A stretch of 64,000 nt of DNA, taken from positions 406 through 64,405 of the forward strand of contig CAWKOQ010000015.1 in NCBI GenBank assembly GCA_963850825.1, given 5' to 3'. This document shows, piece by piece, positions 2,966-61,663 of this stretch. Origin of the DNA: an uncultured Gammaproteobacteria bacterium. Lineage in GTDB: Bacteria > Pseudomonadota > Gammaproteobacteria > Steroidobacterales > Woeseiaceae. The notes below the pieces were generated by a model, which searched no databases, had not been told where the DNA came from, and saw only the letters and a list, made by a program, of their open reading frames with translations. The position numbers were made by a program, and so were the translations under genes. How positions within the stretch are numbered: the stretch's first letter is position 1; every line of letters begins with the position of its first letter.

Positions 2966-3235
2966 TCAGGCGACCCGCCTCGCCTTTGCCGCTTTATCCA
3001 AATCGTATGAAGCCTGAAGGTTCATCCACAGTTTCGGTGACGTACCCAAGGCGTCAGCCAGATCTAATGCCGCTGCCGCGGTGATACCCCGCTTCCCCTT
3101 GATGAGTTCGTTTAGGCGAGTTTTCGTCCAGCCAATTTTTTCTGCGAGAGCTGCCTGCGTAACACCCTTGGGCTCAAGAAACTCCTCAAGCAATATCTCA
3201 CCGGGATGGGACGGATTTTTGGGTTGTCTGGCCAT
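2966..3235 (-). CDS. higA: HigA-type XRE-family antitoxin / HTH regulator (orphan; no intact higB upstream)
   Basis: MARQPKNPSHPGEILLEEFLEP...GVTQAALAEKIGWTKTRLNELIKGKRGIT matches the HigA/VapI pattern. I prefer the ATG at 3235 over the TTG at 3256. Confidence 0.8.
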   Translation of the reverse strand: MARQPKNPSHPGEILLEEFLEPKGVTQAALAEKIGWTKTRLNELIKGKRGITAAAALDLADALGTSPKLWMNLQASYDLDKAAKARRVA

Positions 3236-3253
3236 TGCGTATCCGCCGGCTCT

Positions 3254-3283
3254 CAATATTGGCTTTGAGCTGCCACAATATTG
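3254..3283. promoter_or_regulatory. Two copies of the 8-bp palindrome CAATATTG, 22 bp centre to centre, just upstream of higA
   Basis: CAATATTG occurs at 3254-3261 and 3276-3283. HigA-type antitoxins typically autoregulate through palindromes in their own promoter. Confidence 0.45.
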
Positions 3284-7969: not shown

Positions 7970-7986
7970 AATCTAATTATGCAAGT
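7970..7986 (-). promoter_or_regulatory. Operator-like 17-mer (16/17)
   Basis: + strand AATCTAATTATGCAAGT, reverse complement ACTTGCATAATTAGATT. It sits in the divergent gap between starts 7926 (-) and 8002 (+). Confidence 0.7.
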
Positions 7987-8865: not shown

Positions 8866-8882
8866 ACTTGCATTATTGGACT
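8866..8882 (+). promoter_or_regulatory. Operator-like 17-mer (16/17)
   Basis: ACTTGCATTATTGGACT, 50 nt upstream of the oxygenase ATG at 8933. Confidence 0.7.
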
Positions 8883-8932: not shown

Positions 8933-10384
8933 ATGAACAGCCCCCTCATCAAACCTGACGCGCCCTTCGGCGAATCCCACGGATCGATGGTGACAGGGGT
9001 CCTTGCGCCTGTTTTCCAGGAGTACGTGCTCGACGACCTGGCGGTTGAGGGCGAGATTCCTGCTGACCTTAACGGCGTTTACCTGCGCAACGGACCCAAC
9101 CCGCGCTTCGAGCCGATGGGACAACATCACGTGTTCGACGGCGACGGTATGCTGCATTCCGCGCATTTCGATCGGGGTAAGGTTGTGTATCGCAACAAGT
9201 GGGTGCGTACCGACGCCTGGCTGGAAGAAGATGCTGCTGGCAAGTGTCTGCACGCGGGTATTTATGCAACGCGCAAGGGCCGTGAAGACAAGCGTCTCAG
9301 GGACAGCGCTAACACCGATGTGATTGGCCATGCCGGCCACGCGGTGGCCAGCTGGTACCTCGCCGGCGTGCCTTATCACCTGGATCCGATCACTCTGGAT
9401 ACCGTCGCCAAGGGAGACTATATCTTCGGTCCGGGCAACGGCTTCTCCGCGCACCCCAAGGTCGACGAAATAACAGGCGAGCTGCTGTTCTTCGATTATT
9501 ACAACGCGCACCCGCACATGAGCTATGGCGTCGTCGATGCCTCGGGCAATGCGACCCACCAGGTGCTCATCGAATTGCCGGGTTCGCGGCTACCGCACGA
9601 CATGGCGATCACCGAGAATTACTCGATCCTTCATGATCTACCGGTACTCAATGACCCTGACGCGTTCCGCGCCGGCCGTCACAAGATCCTGTTCGACTCG
9701 TCGTTGCCGGCGCGATTTGGCGTCATACTGCGCCATGGCGCAGGCGACTCGATTCGCTGGTTCGAGTTCTCGCCGTGCTTTCTCTACCATGTCATCAACG
9801 CCTGGGAAGAAGGCGATGAGGTAGTCATGGTGGCCTGCCGTTACATGCCGGTAAAAGACCTCAGAGGCGGCATCAACGAAATACGTACTGCCAAGAACAT
9901 TGGCAGCGGCATCATGGATGCCCGGCTGTGGCGCTACCGCATGAACCTGAAAACCGGCGAGGCGATCGAGGAATGCCTCGATCCTGTCCGCAACGTCGAA
10001 TTCCCGTCTTACAATGCTGCCCTGACAGGGAGAAAGACTCAGTGGGGATACTTCGTCGACCACGATCCCGCCGTCCTGCGCTGGACAGGTTTGCGTAAAT
10101 TCAATACCGACACCGGCGAGAGCGTCGGTGAGTGGAGTGACGGGCACGAAAGCTGTTGGTACAGCGAACCGTGGTTTGCGCCGGCGGACAACCCACGCAG
10201 CGAAGATCACGGCTACGTCGTTACTTTCGTCTGGAACGACAAAACCCGTGAACAGCAGCTACAGATTTTGGACGCTCAGGACATGAACAAGGGACCGGTC
10301 GCAAGAGTCCGAATACCGCACCAGATACCGTCAGGCTTTCACGCCTGCTGGATGAAGCCGAACCAGATAGCATCCTGGGGCTAG
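8933..10384 (+). CDS. Carotenoid-cleavage / lignostilbene-type dioxygenase (RPE65 family)
   Basis: 483 aa. Family stretches are HHVFDGDGMLH, SAHPKVDEITGELLFFDY, LPHDMAITENYSILHD and FLYHVINAWEE. Confidence 0.9.
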   Translation: MNSPLIKPDAPFGESHGSMVTGVLAPVFQEYVLDDLAVEGEIPADLNGVYLRNGPNPRFEPMGQHHVFDGDGMLHSAHFDRGKVVYRNKWVRTDAWLEEDAAGKCLHAGIYATRKGREDKRLRDSANTDVIGHAGHAVASWYLAGVPYHLDPITLDTVAKGDYIFGPGNGFSAHPKVDEITGELLFFDYYNAHPHMSYGVVDASGNATHQVLIELPGSRLPHDMAITENYSILHDLPVLNDPDAFRAGRHKILFDSSLPARFGVILRHGAGDSIRWFEFSPCFLYHVINAWEEGDEVVMVACRYMPVKDLRGGINEIRTAKNIGSGIMDARLWRYRMNLKTGEAIEECLDPVRNVEFPSYNAALTGRKTQWGYFVDHDPAVLRWTGLRKFNTDTGESVGEWSDGHESCWYSEPWFAPADNPRSEDHGYVVTFVWNDKTREQQLQILDAQDMNKGPVARVRIPHQIPSGFHACWMKPNQIASWG

Positions 10385-14289: not shown

Positions 14290-14306
14290 ACTTTCATAAA
14301 TAGACT
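14290..14306 (+). promoter_or_regulatory. Operator-like 17-mer (16/17)
   Basis: ACTTTCATAAATAGACT in the divergent gap, 25 nt from start 14264 (-) and 51 nt from start 14358 (+). It is preceded by TTGACTA, as at 61647 and 52653. Confidence 0.7.
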
Positions 14307-14357: not shown

Positions 14358-16064
14358 ATGCGCACAACACCGACTGAGAGGATCGAAGACCTGACGCAAC
14401 GCGGCTGGTGGTGCGACCAGACACTCGATGGCCTGTTCCGGGAAGCGGTTCAATCCCACCCAGACCACGCGGCACTGGTCGATCAGTACAATCGCAGCGA
14501 CTTCACGGACGGCGAGGCGCAACGATTCACCTTTGCCGAACTTGCGAACGTGGCCGAGAATCTCGCTGCCCGGTTTTATGAGACCGGGTTGCGGCGCGAC
14601 GACATTGTTGTCGTGCAACTGCCGAATATCGTCGAACTCGCGGCCCTCTACCTGGCACTCGGCAAACTGGGCGTCATCATCAGCCCGGTACCCATGCAAT
14701 ACGGTTCGTTTGAACTCGAGAAGGCAAAAAAAGTCGTCGACCCAGCCGCCTATATTTCGCTGACGAACTTTAAGGGCAAGAACTTCGCCAGTGAGCTTGG
14801 TGCCGTGTTCAAAGATGGCTGCAAGGTTTTCTGTTTTGGCAGCGACGTGCCTGATGGCGCAATCTCCCTGGAATTATCGTCGGATAAACCGGACGATAAT
14901 CCTAACTACACCGCATACGTCGACAGTCTTGATATTACTGCGAACGACATCTTCACGATCTGCTGGACCTCCGGAACGACCGGCCAACCCAAAGGCGTAC
15001 CGCGCAGCCACAACATGTGGATGGCCTCGGCGATCGGTTCGCATGATGCGGCATTGTTACAGGACAACGAGATTCTCCTCAACCCCTTCCCGCTCGTTAA
15101 CATGGCGGCCCTCGGTGGCTTCTTGTATTGCTGGATGATGCGCGCCTGCACTTTGGTGCTGCATCATCCGTTCGACATGCAGGTGTTCCTAAAGCAAATA
15201 CAGGACGAGAAGGTCGCGTACACGATTGCACCGCCTGCGGTCCTGACGATGTTGCTGAAGAAGCGCGAGATCCTCGATTCGATAGACATTTCCAGCTTGC
15301 GCTGCATCGGCTCCGGCAGTGCGCCGCTATCCGAGTTCATGGTGGCCGGTTTCGGCAAGGATTTCGGCATCGAAATCCTCAACATATTCGGGTCCAATGA
15401 GGGTATCTGCCTCGCATCGGGACCGAAGGAACTGCCGGACTACGCCGAGCGCGCTCAGTTCTTCCCGCGTTTCGGCGTCGAAGGCCTCGAGTGGGCCAAC
15501 CGCACTGCCAACAACATGAAGACACGTCTCATCTCGCTGGAATCAGGTGAAGAAGTCACCGAAGTCGGGCAGCAAGGCGAACTCGAGATCTGGGGCTCCA
15601 CTGTGTTCGACGGTTATTACAAGTCGCCCGAGGCAAATGCCGAAGTGTTTTCGGAGGATGGCTACTTCCGTACCGGCGACGTATTCGAGATCACGGGCGA
15701 AGGCGAACAGCCACAGTTCTACAAGTTTGTCGGACGCTGCAAGGACATCATCGTGCGTGGTGGCGTCAACATCTCCCCCGACGAGATCGACAATGAATTG
15801 GCCGCGCACCCGAAGGTTGCCCAGGTCTGCGTAGTCGGTATCGACGATGAAATCATGGGCGAGCGCATCGGCGCTGCTGTGGTTGCCAAGCCCGGCGAGA
15901 CTATCGTTCTGGAAGATCTGACGAGCTTTCTGAAGGAACGAGGTGTAGCTGTATTCAAGCTTCCTGAGAAGCTGGTGTGTGCGGAGAGCCTGCCGTACAA
16001 CGCGACAGGTAAAATTCAGCGCCGGGACGTGAAGCACCTGTTCGATCAGGCATCGCCCGAATGA
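14358..16064 (+). CDS. Adenylate-forming acyl-CoA synthetase (AMP-binding)
   Basis: CWTSGTTGQPKGVPRSH P-loop. 568 aa. Close paralog of 36201-37967. Confidence 0.9.
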   Translation: MRTTPTERIEDLTQRGWWCDQTLDGLFREAVQSHPDHAALVDQYNRSDFTDGEAQRFTFAELANVAENLAARFYETGLRRDDIVVVQLPNIVELAALYLALGKLGVIISPVPMQYGSFELEKAKKVVDPAAYISLTNFKGKNFASELGAVFKDGCKVFCFGSDVPDGAISLELSSDKPDDNPNYTAYVDSLDITANDIFTICWTSGTTGQPKGVPRSHNMWMASAIGSHDAALLQDNEILLNPFPLVNMAALGGFLYCWMMRACTLVLHHPFDMQVFLKQIQDEKVAYTIAPPAVLTMLLKKREILDSIDISSLRCIGSGSAPLSEFMVAGFGKDFGIEILNIFGSNEGICLASGPKELPDYAERAQFFPRFGVEGLEWANRTANNMKTRLISLESGEEVTEVGQQGELEIWGSTVFDGYYKSPEANAEVFSEDGYFRTGDVFEITGEGEQPQFYKFVGRCKDIIVRGGVNISPDEIDNELAAHPKVAQVCVVGIDDEIMGERIGAAVVAKPGETIVLEDLTSFLKERGVAVFKLPEKLVCAESLPYNATGKIQRRDVKHLFDQASPE

Positions 16065-17468: not shown

Positions 17469-18416
17469 CTAGTCACGATCGTAGCTGACGTCATGCGGGT
17501 TCAATATCTGTTCACATTCATTGCAGACCGCTTCGCCGTGAAACAGTTTGTCACAGGGCAGATGCGTCAATTCTAGAGGCTCTTTGCCGGGCTTGATCAG
17601 CCAGCGGTTGGCCCAGTCGTGCAGCGCGATGGTATGCGCATACAGGTCTCTGCCCTTTTCCGACAGATGGTACTCGTGCCTGACGGGCCGTTCGCGATAG
17701 GGCACACGATCCAGAACGCCGGTCTGGACGAGCAGCCGCAGGCGATCCGCCAGAATGTTCGTCGCAATGCCGATTGCCGACGCAATATCGTCGAACCGCT
17801 GAAGTCCGAAGAAACCCGCGGCCAGAACCAGCGACGTCCAACGATCGCCGACGCAATCGAGCACCGAAACGTCTTCCTTGCCAAAATCGCCGCTCTTCTC
17901 TTGCTTCGATTTGGAGCGGCGTTGATACCTCGGCGGCAATTTCTTTACAGCAGCGAAGTTCTTTCCGGGCGAAAACCTGACGTCCTGCGGGAGCACTTTT
18001 TGTTTGCACTCGCCGCACCGGTAGATCGGCACCATCGGCTTTCCGCATGACTTGTGGATCAGTGATTCGGGCAGGTAACGGCGCTGTCCCCAATTGTGCT
18101 CCCAAGCCCACATCAATAGCACGACGGGATACAGGTCGAGGCCTTTGTCGGTCAGTCGATACTCATAGCGCATCGGGCTCGTCTGATAAGGGTTCTTGTA
18201 GAGGATGCCTTTCCCGACCAGCGACTTCAGTCGCGACGCCAGCGTACCGCGCGCCGCACTGGTGGACTTCCTGAGATCTTCGAAACGTCGTACGCCGAGA
18301 TAGATGTCCCTCATGATCAGGAAAGCCCAGCTGTCGCCGATAACCGCCAGGGCCTGCGCCACCTGACTGCTGAGGATAAGATCCGAATCGACTTGTGGTT
18401 TCGGCTTGTCGTTCAC
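17469..18416 (-). CDS. Tandem double HxlR-type winged-helix regulator with two H/Cys3 Zn-ribbon-like inserts
   Basis: Two HxlR repeats (…RFEDLRKSTSAARGTLASRLKSLVGKGIL…RYEYRLTDKG and …RFDDIASAIGIATNILADRLRLLVQTGVL…RHEYHLSEKG). The repeats are followed by HKSCGKPMVPIYRCGECKQ and HLPCDKLFHGEAVCNECEQ respectively. The GTG start overlaps the upstream stop (GTGA). Confidence 0.8.
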   Translation of the reverse strand: MNDKPKPQVDSDLILSSQVAQALAVIGDSWAFLIMRDIYLGVRRFEDLRKSTSAARGTLASRLKSLVGKGILYKNPYQTSPMRYEYRLTDKGLDLYPVVLLMWAWEHNWGQRRYLPESLIHKSCGKPMVPIYRCGECKQKVLPQDVRFSPGKNFAAVKKLPPRYQRRSKSKQEKSGDFGKEDVSVLDCVGDRWTSLVLAAGFFGLQRFDDIASAIGIATNILADRLRLLVQTGVLDRVPYRERPVRHEYHLSEKGRDLYAHTIALHDWANRWLIKPGKEPLELTHLPCDKLFHGEAVCNECEQILNPHDVSYDRD

Positions 18417-18880
18417 GGGTGAGGCCGATTCTTCCCTGGTGGCATAGGGATCATGCCGCTTGTGGATTCCATGTATTCCTTATAACCGGGCCGTTCTCTG
18501 GCGAGTTTCTTGTCGAGCGTCGCCTGCCCCGTGACGTTGACTATCAGGTAAGTATACAGAACCGGTCCGATGATCGTTAAAAGGCCCGGCGGAACGTCGC
18601 AGGCGATGAGAAACAGTCCCCACCAGACGCACAGTTCACCGAAGTAGTTCGGATGCCGCGAGTATCGCCACAATCCGCTGCGCAGTATTGTGCCCTTACT
18701 CGCAGGTTCGGCACGAAAGCGCGTCAGCTGTAAGTCCGCGACTGTTTCAAAAACGAAGCCGATCAACCAGACGGACACGCCGACATAGGTCGGCCATCCG
18801 AGTTCCGAAGGAAACGTAAACATCTGACCGAGTTGTACTGGCACGGAAACGAACCAGATCACCTGCCCGATTGACTCCAC
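18413..18880 (-). CDS. Short DUF1295 / ICMT-steroid-reductase-fold membrane protein (C-terminal half only relative to paralogs)
   Basis: GLWRYSRHPNYFGELCVWWGLF and the tail align with 47731-48540 and 52725-53543, but ~115 N-terminal residues are missing. GTG start with GGAG 9 nt upstream. Confidence 0.7.
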   Translation of the reverse strand: MESIGQVIWFVSVPVQLGQMFTFPSELGWPTYVGVSVWLIGFVFETVADLQLTRFRAEPASKGTILRSGLWRYSRHPNYFGELCVWWGLFLIACDVPPGLLTIIGPVLYTYLIVNVTGQATLDKKLARERPGYKEYMESTSGMIPMPPGKNRPHP

Positions 18881-18914
18881 TTATGCGTCTCCACCCCACT
18901 TATGCGTCTCCACC
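18877..18914. repeat. Perfect 19-bp tandem duplication spanning the SD and GTG start of the short DUF1295 gene
   Basis: CCACTTATGCGTCTCCACC x2 (gene strand: GGTGGAGACGCATAAGTGG x2). Confidence 0.95.
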
Positions 18915-18949
18915 CCGCTGGTTCGTTGCTGGCTAAAGCGGTTTTTATT

Positions 18950-18966
18950 AGTCTAATAATGAAAGT
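18950..18966 (-). promoter_or_regulatory. Operator-like 17-mer (17/17)
   Basis: + strand AGTCTAATAATGAAAGT, reverse complement ACTTTCATTATTAGACT. It lies 69 nt upstream of GTG 18880, or 50 nt if the 19-bp duplication is removed. Confidence 0.75.
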
Positions 18967-19081
18967 CAGTATTCGCAAGTCGGGGACGCCATCAGGCAGG
19001 GTGCGACAGACGTGTGGGCGCAAAAATCCTGTCGTGGATCGCCTTGTGACAGAGTACGACGCCGAAAAGCATCTTCCCTGA

Positions 19082-19948
19082 TCAGTTGCCGAGGCTGGCG
19101 AGAAATTTCTCGTAGTTGTCGTACCCACTATCGAACTCGAGATCCAGCCCGTCAGAGGCCAGTTTCTGCCAGTCACGATTGTCGAATCCTGATGCCAGCG
19201 TGGTTGCAGTCGTCTTCATTTTTGCTCTCGCGACGCCGCCACCGCCGGCAATCAGAATCTCGCCGGTGACAGTCCCGGTCGTGAGCCACGCGACGACCGG
19301 TGCAACATGCTCGGGAGCGAGTCGTCCGAACGCCTCATCTGTAACAAGCCCATCAATCATCTGCGTCGCTCCATACGGCGAGATCGCGTTGACAGCAACG
19401 TTTCTCGATGCGCCTTCGAGACTCAGCGAGCGCATCAGGCCGGTAAGTGCGGCTTTCGATGTCGAGTATGCCGGCAGCCCCAATTGGCCGAAAAGGCCAG
19501 CCGAAGAGATGGTAACGACGATGCTGCCACGTCGCTGCTCGCACATATGACGAAATACAGGGTGTGCAACATTCAGCGTTCCCATCAGGTTAACGTCCAG
19601 ATTGCGTCGCAGTTCCGGCAAACTTTGCTTGCGAAACGTAGCGTTCTCTGTAACACCTGCATTGGCGACGAGCGAATCGAGACGGCCGAAGTTCTGCAGT
19701 GCCGTGGCAAGAAGCGAATCGCCCGCGCAGGGTTCCTCGACAGAACTGTGCTCTGCGACGGCTTCCCCCCCTGCCGCGACGATCTCGTCGACGACTCGAT
19801 CTGCCGATGACTCCTCCTCTCCTTCGTGGCTGCGGTTATTGACAACAACACTCGCACCGCGCGCCGCAAAAAACAGGGCGTAGGCACGGCCGAGCCCTTT
19901 CCCTGCACCGGTAATCGCAACGACCTTGCCCTTGAACTCAGTTGTCAT
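19082..19948 (-). CDS. SDR, MFE-2/17beta-HSD4-type (probable 3-hydroxyacyl-CoA dehydrogenase)
   Basis: KGKVVAITGAGKGLGRAYALFFAARGASVVVNN and YSTSKAAL. Start trimmed to 19948. Confidence 0.85.
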   Translation of the reverse strand: MTTEFKGKVVAITGAGKGLGRAYALFFAARGASVVVNNRSHEGEEESSADRVVDEIVAAGGEAVAEHSSVEEPCAGDSLLATALQNFGRLDSLVANAGVTENATFRKQSLPELRRNLDVNLMGTLNVAHPVFRHMCEQRRGSIVVTISSAGLFGQLGLPAYSTSKAALTGLMRSLSLEGASRNVAVNAISPYGATQMIDGLVTDEAFGRLAPEHVAPVVAWLTTGTVTGEILIAGGGGVARAKMKTTATTLASGFDNRDWQKLASDGLDLEFDSGYDNYEKFLASLGN

Positions 19949-24593: not shown

Positions 24594-24610
24594 ACTTGTA
24601 TAATTAGACT
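24594..24610 (+). promoter_or_regulatory. Operator-like 17-mer (16/17)
   Basis: ACTTGTATAATTAGACT, 61 nt upstream of GTG 24672. It lies in the 300-bp divergent gap. Confidence 0.7.
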
Positions 24611-32339: not shown

Positions 32340-32356
32340 AGTCTAATAATGAAAGC
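32340..32356 (-). promoter_or_regulatory. Operator-like 17-mer (16/17)
   Basis: + strand AGTCTAATAATGAAAGC. It is 58 nt from start 32281 (-) and 85 nt from start 32442 (+). Confidence 0.7.
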
Positions 32357-37967: not shown

Positions 37968-38901
37968 GGAAGGCTATGAATTCATCAACCGTGCATTGCG
38001 GTGTCTTCGTAAAATCGAACATGTGCGCCGGCCGCAAGCGGCGATCAAGCCAGACCCCTCCATCAGGATCATCGCTGCTTGGTGGCCGCGTAGACGCCAG
38101 CCAAAGTGCCGTTTCACCGCCCTGGTACGGCGTACGAAGGATGATATTTTGCACTTTATAAAAAACCGGTAATGCACTTTTGACGCCGGGAGTCTTTGTC
38201 CAGCCAGGATGCATGACATACGATTGAATGCCTCTATCCTTGAACTTCGCATTCCAGTAGCCCGTCAATACTGCTTGACCACGCTTATGGGCTGCGTAGA
38301 CAACTTTGCCGTTGTATTTCGACGCGTCCGTCACATTCAGTTTACGAGTACCGATGGGCATGTTGTACATACCGCCGGATGTCATATTGATAATCGTACC
38401 GCCCGAGACGATCTTATCGTTCGCTACCAATCCTTCTGTCAGTATGTAATGACTCAGGATATTGGTGACAAATGTCGCTTCGCGACCTTCGCTAGTGATG
38501 GCCAGTTCCGGAAATAGGACACCAACGTTGTTGAGCAGCACATCGAATGCTTCTCCTTCAATAAGCCGATCACGCAAGCGCTCCGTATCGCTCTGCAACG
38601 ACATATCGGCGACTTCGTAACTAACACGAGCTTTGGCGTCGGTCGGCAAATCATCAAGCAGCTGCTGCAACTTCGCTTCGCTGCGGGCGACCGCGACCAC
38701 TTCGGCGCCGGACTCGGCCGCAGCGATAACCATTGCGCGGCCTATGCCGCCCGACGCGCCGGTAATCAGCCAGCGCTGACCAGCATAGTCTTTTGTATAT
38801 CGCCTCAGGAACAGTCCGCGCGCGAAGTAACCGATCTTGGTATAGCTCGGCGTAAATCGACCATAGAAATTGAGTATCTTGATAAAAGTACGTGTATCCA
38901 T
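37933..38901 (-). CDS. SDR-family oxidoreductase (DHRS12-like, with N-terminal extension)
   Basis: WLITGASGGIGRAMV and YAAHK. Confidence 0.85.
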   Translation of the reverse strand: MDTRTFIKILNFYGRFTPSYTKIGYFARGLFLRRYTKDYAGQRWLITGASGGIGRAMVIAAAESGAEVVAVARSEAKLQQLLDDLPTDAKARVSYEVADMSLQSDTERLRDRLIEGEAFDVLLNNVGVLFPELAITSEGREATFVTNILSHYILTEGLVANDKIVSGGTIINMTSGGMYNMPIGTRKLNVTDASKYNGKVVYAAHKRGQAVLTGYWNAKFKDRGIQSYVMHPGWTKTPGVKSALPVFYKVQNIILRTPYQGGETALWLASTRPPSSDDPDGGVWLDRRLRPAHMFDFTKTPQCTVDEFIAFLDAEVAQGSAA

Positions 38902-42069: not shown

Positions 42070-42086
42070 AGTCTTACTATGCAAGC
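42070..42086 (-). promoter_or_regulatory. Operator-like 17-mer (14/17)
   Basis: + strand AGTCTTACTATGCAAGC. It is 32 nt from start 42037 (-) and 42 nt from start 42129 (+). Confidence 0.6.
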
Positions 42087-47579: not shown

Positions 47580-47596
47580 ACTTGCGTAATTAGACT
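47580..47596 (+). promoter_or_regulatory. Operator-like 17-mer (16/17)
   Basis: ACTTGCGTAATTAGACT in the 306-bp divergent gap between TBDR start 47424 (-) and DUF1295 start 47731 (+). Confidence 0.7.
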
Positions 47597-52652: not shown

Positions 52653-52669
52653 ACTTGCTTTACCAGACT
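52653..52669 (+). promoter_or_regulatory. Operator-like 17-mer (14/17)
   Basis: ACTTGCTTTACCAGACT preceded by TTGACTC. It is 12 nt from ACAD start 52640 (-) and 55 nt from ATG 52725 (+). Confidence 0.6.
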
Positions 52670-61646: not shown

Positions 61647-61663
61647 ACTTTCGTAAATAGACC
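61647..61663 (+). promoter_or_regulatory. Operator-like 17-mer (14/17)
   Basis: ACTTTCGTAAATAGACC preceded by TTGACTC, 47 nt upstream of MFS start 61599. Confidence 0.6.

Follow-up and report, generated by a model that had tools for sequence, protein, structure and literature searches.

A widespread single-chain double-HxlR regulator with paired His-Cys3 modules and a predicted asymmetric 17-bp operator

Background

Transcription regulators of the HxlR/MarR type are symmetric homodimers that bind palindromes. A gene from an uncultured gammaproteobacterium raises the question of how an operator is read when two such modules are joined in a single polypeptide and have diverged from each other. 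The gene (17469..18416, minus strand; GTG start, TAG stop) lies in a stretch of 64,000 nucleotides, hereafter the window (contig CAWKOQ010000015.1 of GenBank assembly GCA_963850825.1, positions 406 to 64,405), from a member of the Woeseiaceae, a lineage that is abundant in marine sediment and mostly uncultured. The open reading frame (ORF) listing and Pfam identify its 315-aa product as a double-HxlR regulator. A preliminary description of this DNA had seen in it an unusual tandem HxlR protein with two zinc-ribbon-like inserts, which regulates its own operon through a perfect copy of a 17-bp motif and might sense electrophiles through cysteines.

Comparative analysis of the protein and the motif points to a widespread, undescribed single-chain subfamily of HxlR proteins with added His-Cys3 modules and a highly conserved asymmetric operator. 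The reading that we favour, and regard as probable, is that of a single-chain double HxlR protein whose His-Cys3 sites likely bind zinc and which would recognize an asymmetric 17-bp operator as the autoregulated repressor of a lipid/polyene catabolic cluster. Such a fused pseudo-dimer with diverged halves would be a clean system for studying the evolution of asymmetric, direction-reading operators from symmetric ones.

Domain architecture and predicted structure

A Pfam search with the 315-aa protein matched the HxlR profile (PF01638) in two stretches (E 5.8e-43, 145 bits against a cut-off of 20.8). When residues 1-162 were compared with residues 163-315 using BLASTP, the halves proved to be 34% identical over 131 aligned residues (E 2e-27), and the two H-x2-C...C-x2-C motifs fell in register. 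An AlphaFold2 (AF2) model computed from a 27-sequence alignment (mean predicted local distance difference test score, pLDDT, 88.1; predicted template modelling score, pTM, 0.86) consists of two winged helices, at residues ~11-109 and ~185-272, each of which is followed by a small β module (~117-150 and ~279-312). The proposal of two winged-helix HxlR modules and two zinc-ribbon-like modules is thus borne out by profile searches, structure prediction and conservation. The architecture departs from that of the HxlR/DUF24 family at large, whose members are single-domain homodimers of ~100-130 aa: here one chain of 315 aa holds two non-identical modules, and this arrangement is kept throughout the double-HxlR subfamily.

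According to the secondary structure assigned to the model by DSSP, the N-terminal winged helix (18090..18386, minus strand) contains the recognition helix AARGTLASRL, of which R56, T58, L59, R62 and L63 are kept across proteobacterial classes. The C-terminal winged helix (17601..17864, minus strand; best Pfam stretch 189-273) contains the recognition helix GIATNILADRL, which is invariant in the genome orthologues but was itself one of two peptide patterns by which these were collected. The two modules are separated by a linker of ~34 residues (~151-184; 17865..17966, minus strand), where pLDDT is reduced to 68-82 and which bears the basic motif R163-x-Q165-R166-R167 (window ~17916-17930). In 27 close homologues Q165, R166 and R167 are invariant and R163 is conserved in at least 90%, and the RR pair is retained in the family-wide consensus of 112 cluster representatives. 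One might speculate that this segment touches the A/T-rich centre of the operator through the minor groove.

Both the PDB-sequence and the Foldseek matches of the regulator are HxlR-family structures throughout, and no PDB structure spanning both halves was found either by sequence or by fold. The best PDB sequence matches of the N-terminal half are PA1607 (2f2e) and PA1374 (4gcv), with E ~1e-18, while YodB and YtfH are the nearest for the C-terminal half. PA1607 and PA1374, 'long' HxlR proteins of Pseudomonas aeruginosa solved by structural genomics, stand closest to each half in sequence, and their likeness in fold (Foldseek TM score 0.79 over 130 columns) extends beyond the ~90-100 columns that can be aligned to short HxlR proteins. 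They differ from the window protein in being single-domain proteins of 146-168 aa with at least two chains per PDB entry, and in having an extension without metal ligands. A plausible origin for the regulator would be a long HxlR ancestor of the PA1607/PA1374 type, with a winged helix and a C-terminal β extension, that was duplicated and then fused to give a single-chain 'covalent dimer'.

The better characterized members of the family are more distant in organization. YodB, HypR (YybR), QsrR and CatR (5hs7, 4a5n, 4hqe) share the winged-helix fold and the Pfam family with the window regulator; however, they are homodimers of ~100-120 aa with a sensing cysteine in the N-terminal helix and true palindromic operators, and they lack the metal module. 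Their operators are short dyad sites over two major grooves and they are often autoregulated. The HxlR protein of Bacillus subtilis (7bzd, 7bzg), the founding member of the Pfam family, has the same DNA-binding fold but neither the duplication nor a His-Cys3 module. It is a homodimeric activator that senses formaldehyde by an intrahelical cross-link between Cys11 and Lys13 (PMC7835342), and the window regulator contains no comparable Cys-Lys pair. PF0095 of Pyrococcus furiosus (2quf, 2qlz) also has two winged helices per chain, but these belong to another domain family in another arrangement (TM ~0.2), again without a metal module.

Association of the regulator with a 17-bp motif

The 17-mer ACTTKCATWATTAGACT occurs in the window in seven copies with at most three mismatches, against 0.03 expected. 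All seven are intergenic, each lies 43-134 nt 5' of a start codon, and each points towards that gene. A position weight matrix (PWM) was made from the seven sites, oriented as ACTTKCATWATTAGACT. The top PWM score in the window (27.8 of 28.2) belongs to the candidate autoregulatory operator ACTTTCATTATTAGACT (18950..18966, read on the minus strand), 69 nt upstream of the operon formed by a DUF1295 gene and the regulator. This site had been singled out as the only 17/17 copy. It does score best, and the identical 17-mer recurs upstream of the orthologous operon or gene in other genomes (loci L001, L002, L004, L005, L012-L016, L071 and L077), but the perfection of the match is partly circular, as the consensus was defined on this very copy.

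We next consider the motif in the neighborhoods of orthologous genes, for each of which ~20 kb was examined. A PWM scan of 81 such loci (1.4 Mb) yielded 96 sites of at least 20 bits and 64 of at least 23 bits; order-1 shuffles gave 0-1 at either threshold. The motif has an identical consensus in five clades of the gamma-, beta- and alphaproteobacteria, and its flanks carry no information, which sets the length of the element at ~17 bp. Of 74 loci, 39 have a site in the 1.2 kb upstream of the regulator, and in 35 of these the orientation is the same. The distance is ~860-920 nt where a full DUF1295 gene intervenes and ~55-140 nt where the regulator stands alone, as in rhizobia. The fifth position of the motif is mostly T (ACTTTCA...) before the regulator's own gene or operon and mostly G (ACTTGCA...) before target operons, a split that holds in gamma- and alphaproteobacterial loci (L001-L016, L060-L081 and the window) and may tune autoregulation apart from target regulation. 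Two copies of the motif stand 14 and 18 nt apart in L046 (15528-15558) and L070 (9862-9896); the sites elsewhere are single.

The gene contents of these loci differ widely. In an all-against-all clustering of their 4254 ORFs, only the regulator family reaches 79 of the 81 loci; a nitronate monooxygenase-like protein (NMO; 43), DUF1295 (40) and aldehyde dehydrogenase (ALDH; 36) come next, and none of the top families is a second regulator family common to the loci. On plasmids of Rhizobium and Agrobacterium (L081, Rhizobium etli pRetIE4771a; L086, Agrobacterium pAtCFBP7129b) the same motif accompanies a wholly different cluster. WP_245308066.1 is the orthologue on pRetIE4771a, and WP_223567798.1 is an orthologue from Agrobacterium. 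The cluster codes for a three-subunit XDH-family Mo-hydroxylase (with FAD and 2Fe-2S subunits), a metallo-β-lactamase (MBL)-type lactonase, CoxG, a Liv-type ABC transporter, an enoyl-CoA hydratase and a short-chain dehydrogenase/reductase (SDR). Alpha- and betaproteobacterial orthologues (L081 and L086, and also L051-L077) adjoin this XDH-type cluster with the 17-mer nearby. In syntenic rhizobial loci (e.g. L060-L067, L071) perfect copies, ACTTGCATTATTAGACT and GCTTGCATTATTAGACT, lie ~5.5 and 10 kb downstream of the regulator, at positions that match by offset the divergent promoter regions of the XDH-type cluster.

The association was also approached from the motif: the JGI metagenomes were searched for perfect copies of ACTTTCATTATTAGACT, and 120 stretches were obtained. 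The double-HxlR gene is present in 29/120, and in 26 of these it follows the motif on the same strand at a distance of ~865-918 nt or 10-145 nt (312 nt in one case). Another 37/120 are too short downstream to be informative, leaving 54/120 informative stretches without the gene. In 37 of these 54 the G+C content is below 0.45, where chance matches of an A/T-rich word are expected, and in 15 it is 0.5 or above. In 13 of these 15 the motif adjoins homologues of regulon genes: in 11 it precedes, by ~60-80 nt, an RPE65-type gene with a wax ester synthase/diacylglycerol acyltransferase (WS/DGAT) or hydrolase gene behind it, and in two it is next to an NMO homologue.

These observations strongly uphold the proposed link between regulator and 17-mer, as orthologues co-occur with the motif across gamma-, beta- and alphaproteobacteria despite entirely different neighbors; gene and motif are co-inherited, and the motif is very probably the operator of the double-HxlR protein. 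It might be argued instead that the 17-mer is bound by some other regulator encoded outside the window and that the double-HxlR gene is merely one member of the regulon, with a target of its own. Many orthologous loci do lack a site directly upstream of the regulator, and the comparison of loci covered ~20 kb around each orthologue. This scenario is nevertheless very improbable, given that motif and gene stay together in three proteobacterial classes while the neighbors of the gene change completely, that the loci have no other family and no other regulator in common, that nearly a quarter of the exact metagenomic matches adjoin the gene, and that both recognition helices are conserved over the same span as the motif. 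The preliminary description had also held that this is the only regulator inside the regulon. This is confirmed for the window, where Pfam searches of ~60 ORFs recovered no other DNA-binding protein except a HigA-like XRE-family protein. The latter (2966-3256, minus strand; 96 aa), probably an antitoxin, lies outside the motif-marked region.

Operator recognition and direction of regulation

The operator consensus, ACTT(G/T)CAT-W-ATTAGACT, can be divided into two unlike 8-bp half-sites, ACTTKCAT on the top strand and AGTCTAAT on the bottom strand, with an A/T pair between them. The half-sites agree at 4/8 positions, or at 5/8 in the autoregulatory T-variant. The recognition helices of the two modules likewise differ and are each conserved, as R-x-T-L-x-x-R-L in the N-terminal half and as G-I-A-T-N-I-L-A-D-R-L in the C-terminal half. 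An asymmetric motif with weak dyad symmetry therefore fits the two distinct helices, as had been anticipated for a protein with non-identical halves. Given that the halves carry different, separately conserved recognition helices, the most economical model would have one molecule reading one asymmetric 17-bp operator.

The operator may also overlap the promoter. Upstream of the regulator's operon, a candidate -35 hexamer TTGCGA (18973..18978, minus strand) lies 17 nt upstream of TAGACT (18950-18955), a candidate -10 box inside the operator. The site at 14290 reads TTGATT-17 nt-TAGACT, and in Woeseiaceae-like loci TTGCAG, TTGATT, TTGAAA and TTGCAA are found precisely 17 nt upstream of TAGACT. 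The 3' half of the operator would then double as the -10 box, the bound protein would occlude RNA polymerase, and from this overlap the protein would be expected to act as a repressor that is freed from the DNA by some signal. Two other placements of the promoter were rejected: a sigma-54 promoter with TTGCAT as its -12 element, as the G is often T and no GG occurs 10-11 nt upstream, and the 3' half of the motif as a -35 box, as no consistent -10 follows it at the seven window sites.

Activation is the opposite possibility, in which the protein would bind the 17-mer in the manner of B. subtilis HxlR and HypR, both of which are activators, and its fixed orientation would face one half towards RNA polymerase. 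The site is indeed directed to the downstream gene at 7/7 strong window sites and 35/39 autoregulatory sites, TAGACT shares 4/6 positions with the -35 consensus TTGACA, and the distance between motif and start codon leaves room for a promoter downstream of the site. However, a -10-like element is not consistently present ~17 nt downstream of the motif at the seven window sites, many Woeseiaceae-like sites instead have TTGnnn 17 nt before TAGACT, and catabolic clusters with an autoregulated local regulator are mostly controlled by repressors. We accordingly consider activation unlikely.

Several observations weigh against an autoregulated repressor that reads an asymmetric operator. The dyad symmetry of the motif is weak, at 4-5/8 positions against 2/8 by chance. 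A sigma-70 consensus scan of 18860-19090 returned no promoter, and TTGCGA-17-TAGACT matches the consensus at 8/12 positions. The weak sites at 61647 and 63443 face away from the minus-strand gene next to them. Retrieval of the orthologous loci relied on peptide patterns that include the C-half helix GIATNIL[AS]D, so that the sample is enriched for the expected shared specificity and says nothing about the DNA specificity of the wider family. In the unbiased set of 112 representatives this helix is less conserved, so that other subfamilies probably have different target sites. Conservation across three classes is nevertheless seen for the N-half helix R-x-T-L-x-x-R-L, although this was no part of the retrieval pattern. 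No recognizable site precedes the regulator in about half of the Steroidobacteraceae-like loci and in several others. Finally, physical binding, monomeric stoichiometry, metal content, repression and the nature of the inducer are all deduced from sequences and models. As for autoregulation, the conserved upstream sites lend the proposal strong support, but given their absence or weakness in a substantial minority of loci, including many of the Steroidobacteraceae-like ones, autoregulation through the 17-mer would not be universal. In the loci where the upstream motif is missing or weak (L017-L036, L044, L048 and others), variants such as ACTTGCATAATGATACT occur elsewhere.

The His-Cys3 modules and signal sensing

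The first His-Cys3 module (residues ~117-150; 17967..18068, minus strand) has the pattern H121-x2-C124-x9-C134-x2-C137, carried on β-hairpin knuckles, and strands at 119-121, 126-128, 130-134 and 146-150 in the DSSP assignment of the AF2 model. The second (residues ~279-312; 17481..17582, minus strand) has H285-x2-C288-x9-C298-x2-C301, with strands at 281-285, 294-298 and 310-312. In the predicted secondary structure H121-x2-C124 comes after strand 119-121 and C134-x2-C137 after strand 130-134, and H285/C288 and C298/C301 are laid out in the same way. As modelled, both modules have the two-knuckle ligand layout of zinc ribbons. Conservation of the eight ligands is complete among 27 homologues with 55-82% identity and nearly so among 75 genome orthologues with 33-68% identity, and in 112 cluster representatives with 29-44% identity to the query every ligand is invariant or at least 90% conserved; in this last, diverse set C298 and C301 never vary, and H285 and C288 reach at least 90%.

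The isolated modules have no close counterpart in Pfam, where the best matches (Zn_ribbon_11, E 0.07; zf_C2H2_ZNF598, E 0.031) are both far under the cut-offs. The first module is homologous to the Cys-less C-terminal extension of PA1607 and PA1374, in which Glu stands opposite H121 and Ser opposite C124. This implies that the metal-type site is an addition to an older extension. The sites are most likely structural, with zinc as the putative metal.

The electrophile sensing that had been suggested by analogy with YodB, HypR, QsrR and HxlR finds no support. The sensing cysteines of these proteins (YodB C6, HypR C14, QsrR C5, HxlR C11) have no equivalent, as helix 1 of either half is devoid of a conserved Cys. 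C188 of the window protein varies among homologues, and the only cysteines among the columns conserved at 90% or more are C124, C134, C137, C288, C298 and C301. Thiol chemistry, if it is involved at all, must then go through the His-Cys3 centres. This moves the electrophile idea to a non-canonical site, with the centres as zinc-thiolate or iron redox/electrophile switches (compare RsrA, Hsp33 and the 3Cys-1His iron centre) whose oxidation or alkylation would free the protein from its operator. Besides the absence of the canonical N-terminal cysteine and the confinement of conserved cysteines to the two modules, such a role might draw on the presence in the regulon of aldehyde-producing oxygenases (two RPE65 enzymes), an aldehyde dehydrogenase and a hemerythrin, and on the ligand-free extension of PA1607 and PA1374, which marks the metal site as an added feature. 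Yet H-x2-C...C-x2-C on two β-hairpin knuckles is the classic pattern of a structural zinc ribbon, and the same pair of protein and motif would govern unrelated alpha- and betaproteobacterial pathways, which favors neither a common metabolite nor electrophile stress. A sensory role for these centres is therefore doubtful; if true, it would be a new sensing mechanism for the HxlR family. The broadest form of the idea is a widespread class in which an HxlR/MarR-type dimer has been fused into one chain with specialised halves, an asymmetric 17-bp operator and two His-Cys3 centres that sense redox state, electrophiles or metal, and which controls a different catabolic regulon in each lineage; this appears quite unlikely.

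Phyletic distribution

The preliminary description had presented the architecture as unusual, but it proves to be widespread. A GTDB species-representative scan found a relative encoded in at least 583 species genomes, and an exhaustive phmmer search of 1.84 billion cluster representatives recovered 268 clusters (50% identity) at E <=1e-30; of these 268 the best 150 are nearly all 300-350 aa long. A word-indexed search returned 821 homologues, the best 120 of which are nearly all of 310-330 aa with 56-94% identity and mostly metagenomic. In the 80 loci kept from the GTDB scan the match spans nearly the whole protein. They come from Woeseiaceae (the closest, 55-68%), Steroidobacteraceae, Lysobacterales, Cellvibrionaceae and Paraglaciecola, and further from Cupriavidus, Ralstonia, Paraburkholderia, Rhizobium, Ensifer, Agrobacterium, Shinella and Kordiimonas. 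The full-length plasmid matches listed are all from rhizobia, Agrobacterium and Aminobacter, with none from Ralstonia, whose megaplasmid matches are probably partial or single-domain.

In RefSeq the rhizobial members are named merely 'helix-turn-helix domain-containing protein', and NCBIfam has no specific model for the regulator, with RrpA/RrpB matching below threshold only. Full-text literature searches recovered no description of tandem HxlR proteins. A genistein-induced 'HxlR-type' gene has been reported in Bradyrhizobium (PMC9069715), which may or may not be a member of the subfamily. The paired His-Cys3 modules appear to be new for the family, as we found no Pfam or NCBIfam model, solved structure or paper covering them. 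The pair of protein and motif is conserved from the Woeseiaceae to Rhizobium, Agrobacterium, Cupriavidus and Paraburkholderia, so that regulons in hundreds of genomes and metagenome-assembled genomes can already be annotated with the 17-mer, and the genetically tractable rhizobia would allow direct experiments on this proposal.

The motif-marked regulon of the window

In the favored reading at least seven promoter regions of the lipid/polyene catabolic cluster would have one operator each, among them that of the regulator's own operon. Besides this last copy, six more strong sites precede neighboring catabolic operons, the pattern expected of an autoregulated local regulator. The copy ACTTGCATAATTAGATT (7970..7986, minus strand) is 43 nt upstream of a histidine-phosphatase gene that is divergent from a thioesterase gene. 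ACTTGCATTATTGGACT (8866..8882, plus strand) is 50 nt upstream of an RPE65-type oxygenase gene (8933-10384), and ACTTTCATAAATAGACT (14290..14306, plus strand), which is conserved in L002-L006 and L016, is 51 nt upstream of an acyl-CoA synthetase gene (14358-16064). ACTTGTATAATTAGACT (24594..24610, plus strand) is 61 nt upstream of a hydrolase-hemerythrin-acyltransferase operon that is divergent from an ALDH operon. GCTTTCATTATTAGACT (32340..32356, minus strand) lies between genes for an alpha/beta-hydrolase (minus) and an HpaB-type monooxygenase (plus), and ACTTGCGTAATTAGACT (47580..47596, plus strand) between those for a TonB-dependent receptor (minus) and a DUF1295/Mo-oxidoreductase (plus).

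Weaker copies, of 13-19 bits, extend to further promoter regions. Among them are GCTTGCATAGTAAGACT (42070..42086, minus strand; 17.6 bits), 32 nt upstream of an amidohydrolase operon, and ACTTTCGTAAATAGACC (61647..61663, plus strand; 19.4 bits), in opposite orientation at the start of an MFS gene; others are at 52653, 58848 and 63443, and also at 38873 and 38940.

The motif-marked region (7200-63400) codes for two RPE65-type oxygenases, ALDH, at least five acyl-CoA synthetases, SCP2-type and ordinary thiolases, and acyl-CoA dehydrogenases (ACADs). It also contains two CrtI-like FAD enzymes, three genes for reductase-like DUF1295 proteins, SnoaL/limonene-epoxide-hydrolase-like proteins and a fatty-acid hydroxylase, as well as WS/DGAT, glycerol-3-phosphate acyltransferase (GPAT)-like acyltransferases, hemerythrin, a TonB receptor and MFS transporters. 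The regulon thus probably represents polyene/isoprenoid-lipid catabolism coupled to storage-lipid synthesis. In the Woeseiaceae, then, the motif delimits a large regulon, with RPE65 oxygenases, CoA ligases, thiolases and wax-ester/triacylglycerol (TAG) synthase, whose role is probably in polyene/isoprenoid lipid turnover.

The local DUF1295-regulator operon

The regulator gene is preceded by a DUF1295 ORF of 155 aa (18413..18880, minus strand), the TGA stop codon of which overlaps the GTG start of the regulator by 4 nt. The translational coupling that had been proposed from this GTGA is supported by relatives, in which the same genes share the 4-nt overlap. In contrast, the short DUF1295 gene, which had been taken for a normal one, is a deletion remnant. 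It covers only positions 97-235 of the Pfam profile and is 81% identical to residues 122-261 of a 272-aa orthologue: the first six codons ('MESIGQ') are retained, after which the sequence resumes at orthologue residue 122, with ~117 N-terminal residues lost in frame. Synteny in L082-L084 agrees with this. In relatives with 87% identity the gene order is ALDH, thiolase, CoA ligase and SDR (plus), NMO (minus), the operator, the 272-aa DUF1295 (plus) and the regulator (plus), so that NMO is divergent from DUF1295 and the operator region is common to both. In the window, scraps of the deleted NMO gene persist at 18985..19083 (plus strand), as indicated by DNA alignment with L082 and by the gene order in L082 and L084. 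The degraded DUF1295/NMO locus could conceivably be an assembly artefact. It retains the promoter and operator, an open reading frame and the 4-nt coupling to the regulator, which suggests that expression of the regulator is probably intact and that the truncated DUF1295 protein is probably non-functional. The ribosome-binding site and start of the truncated gene are covered by a perfect 19-bp tandem duplication (18877..18916), detected by Tandem Repeats Finder (TRF; period 19, 2.1 copies, 100% matches) and by a second repeat search.

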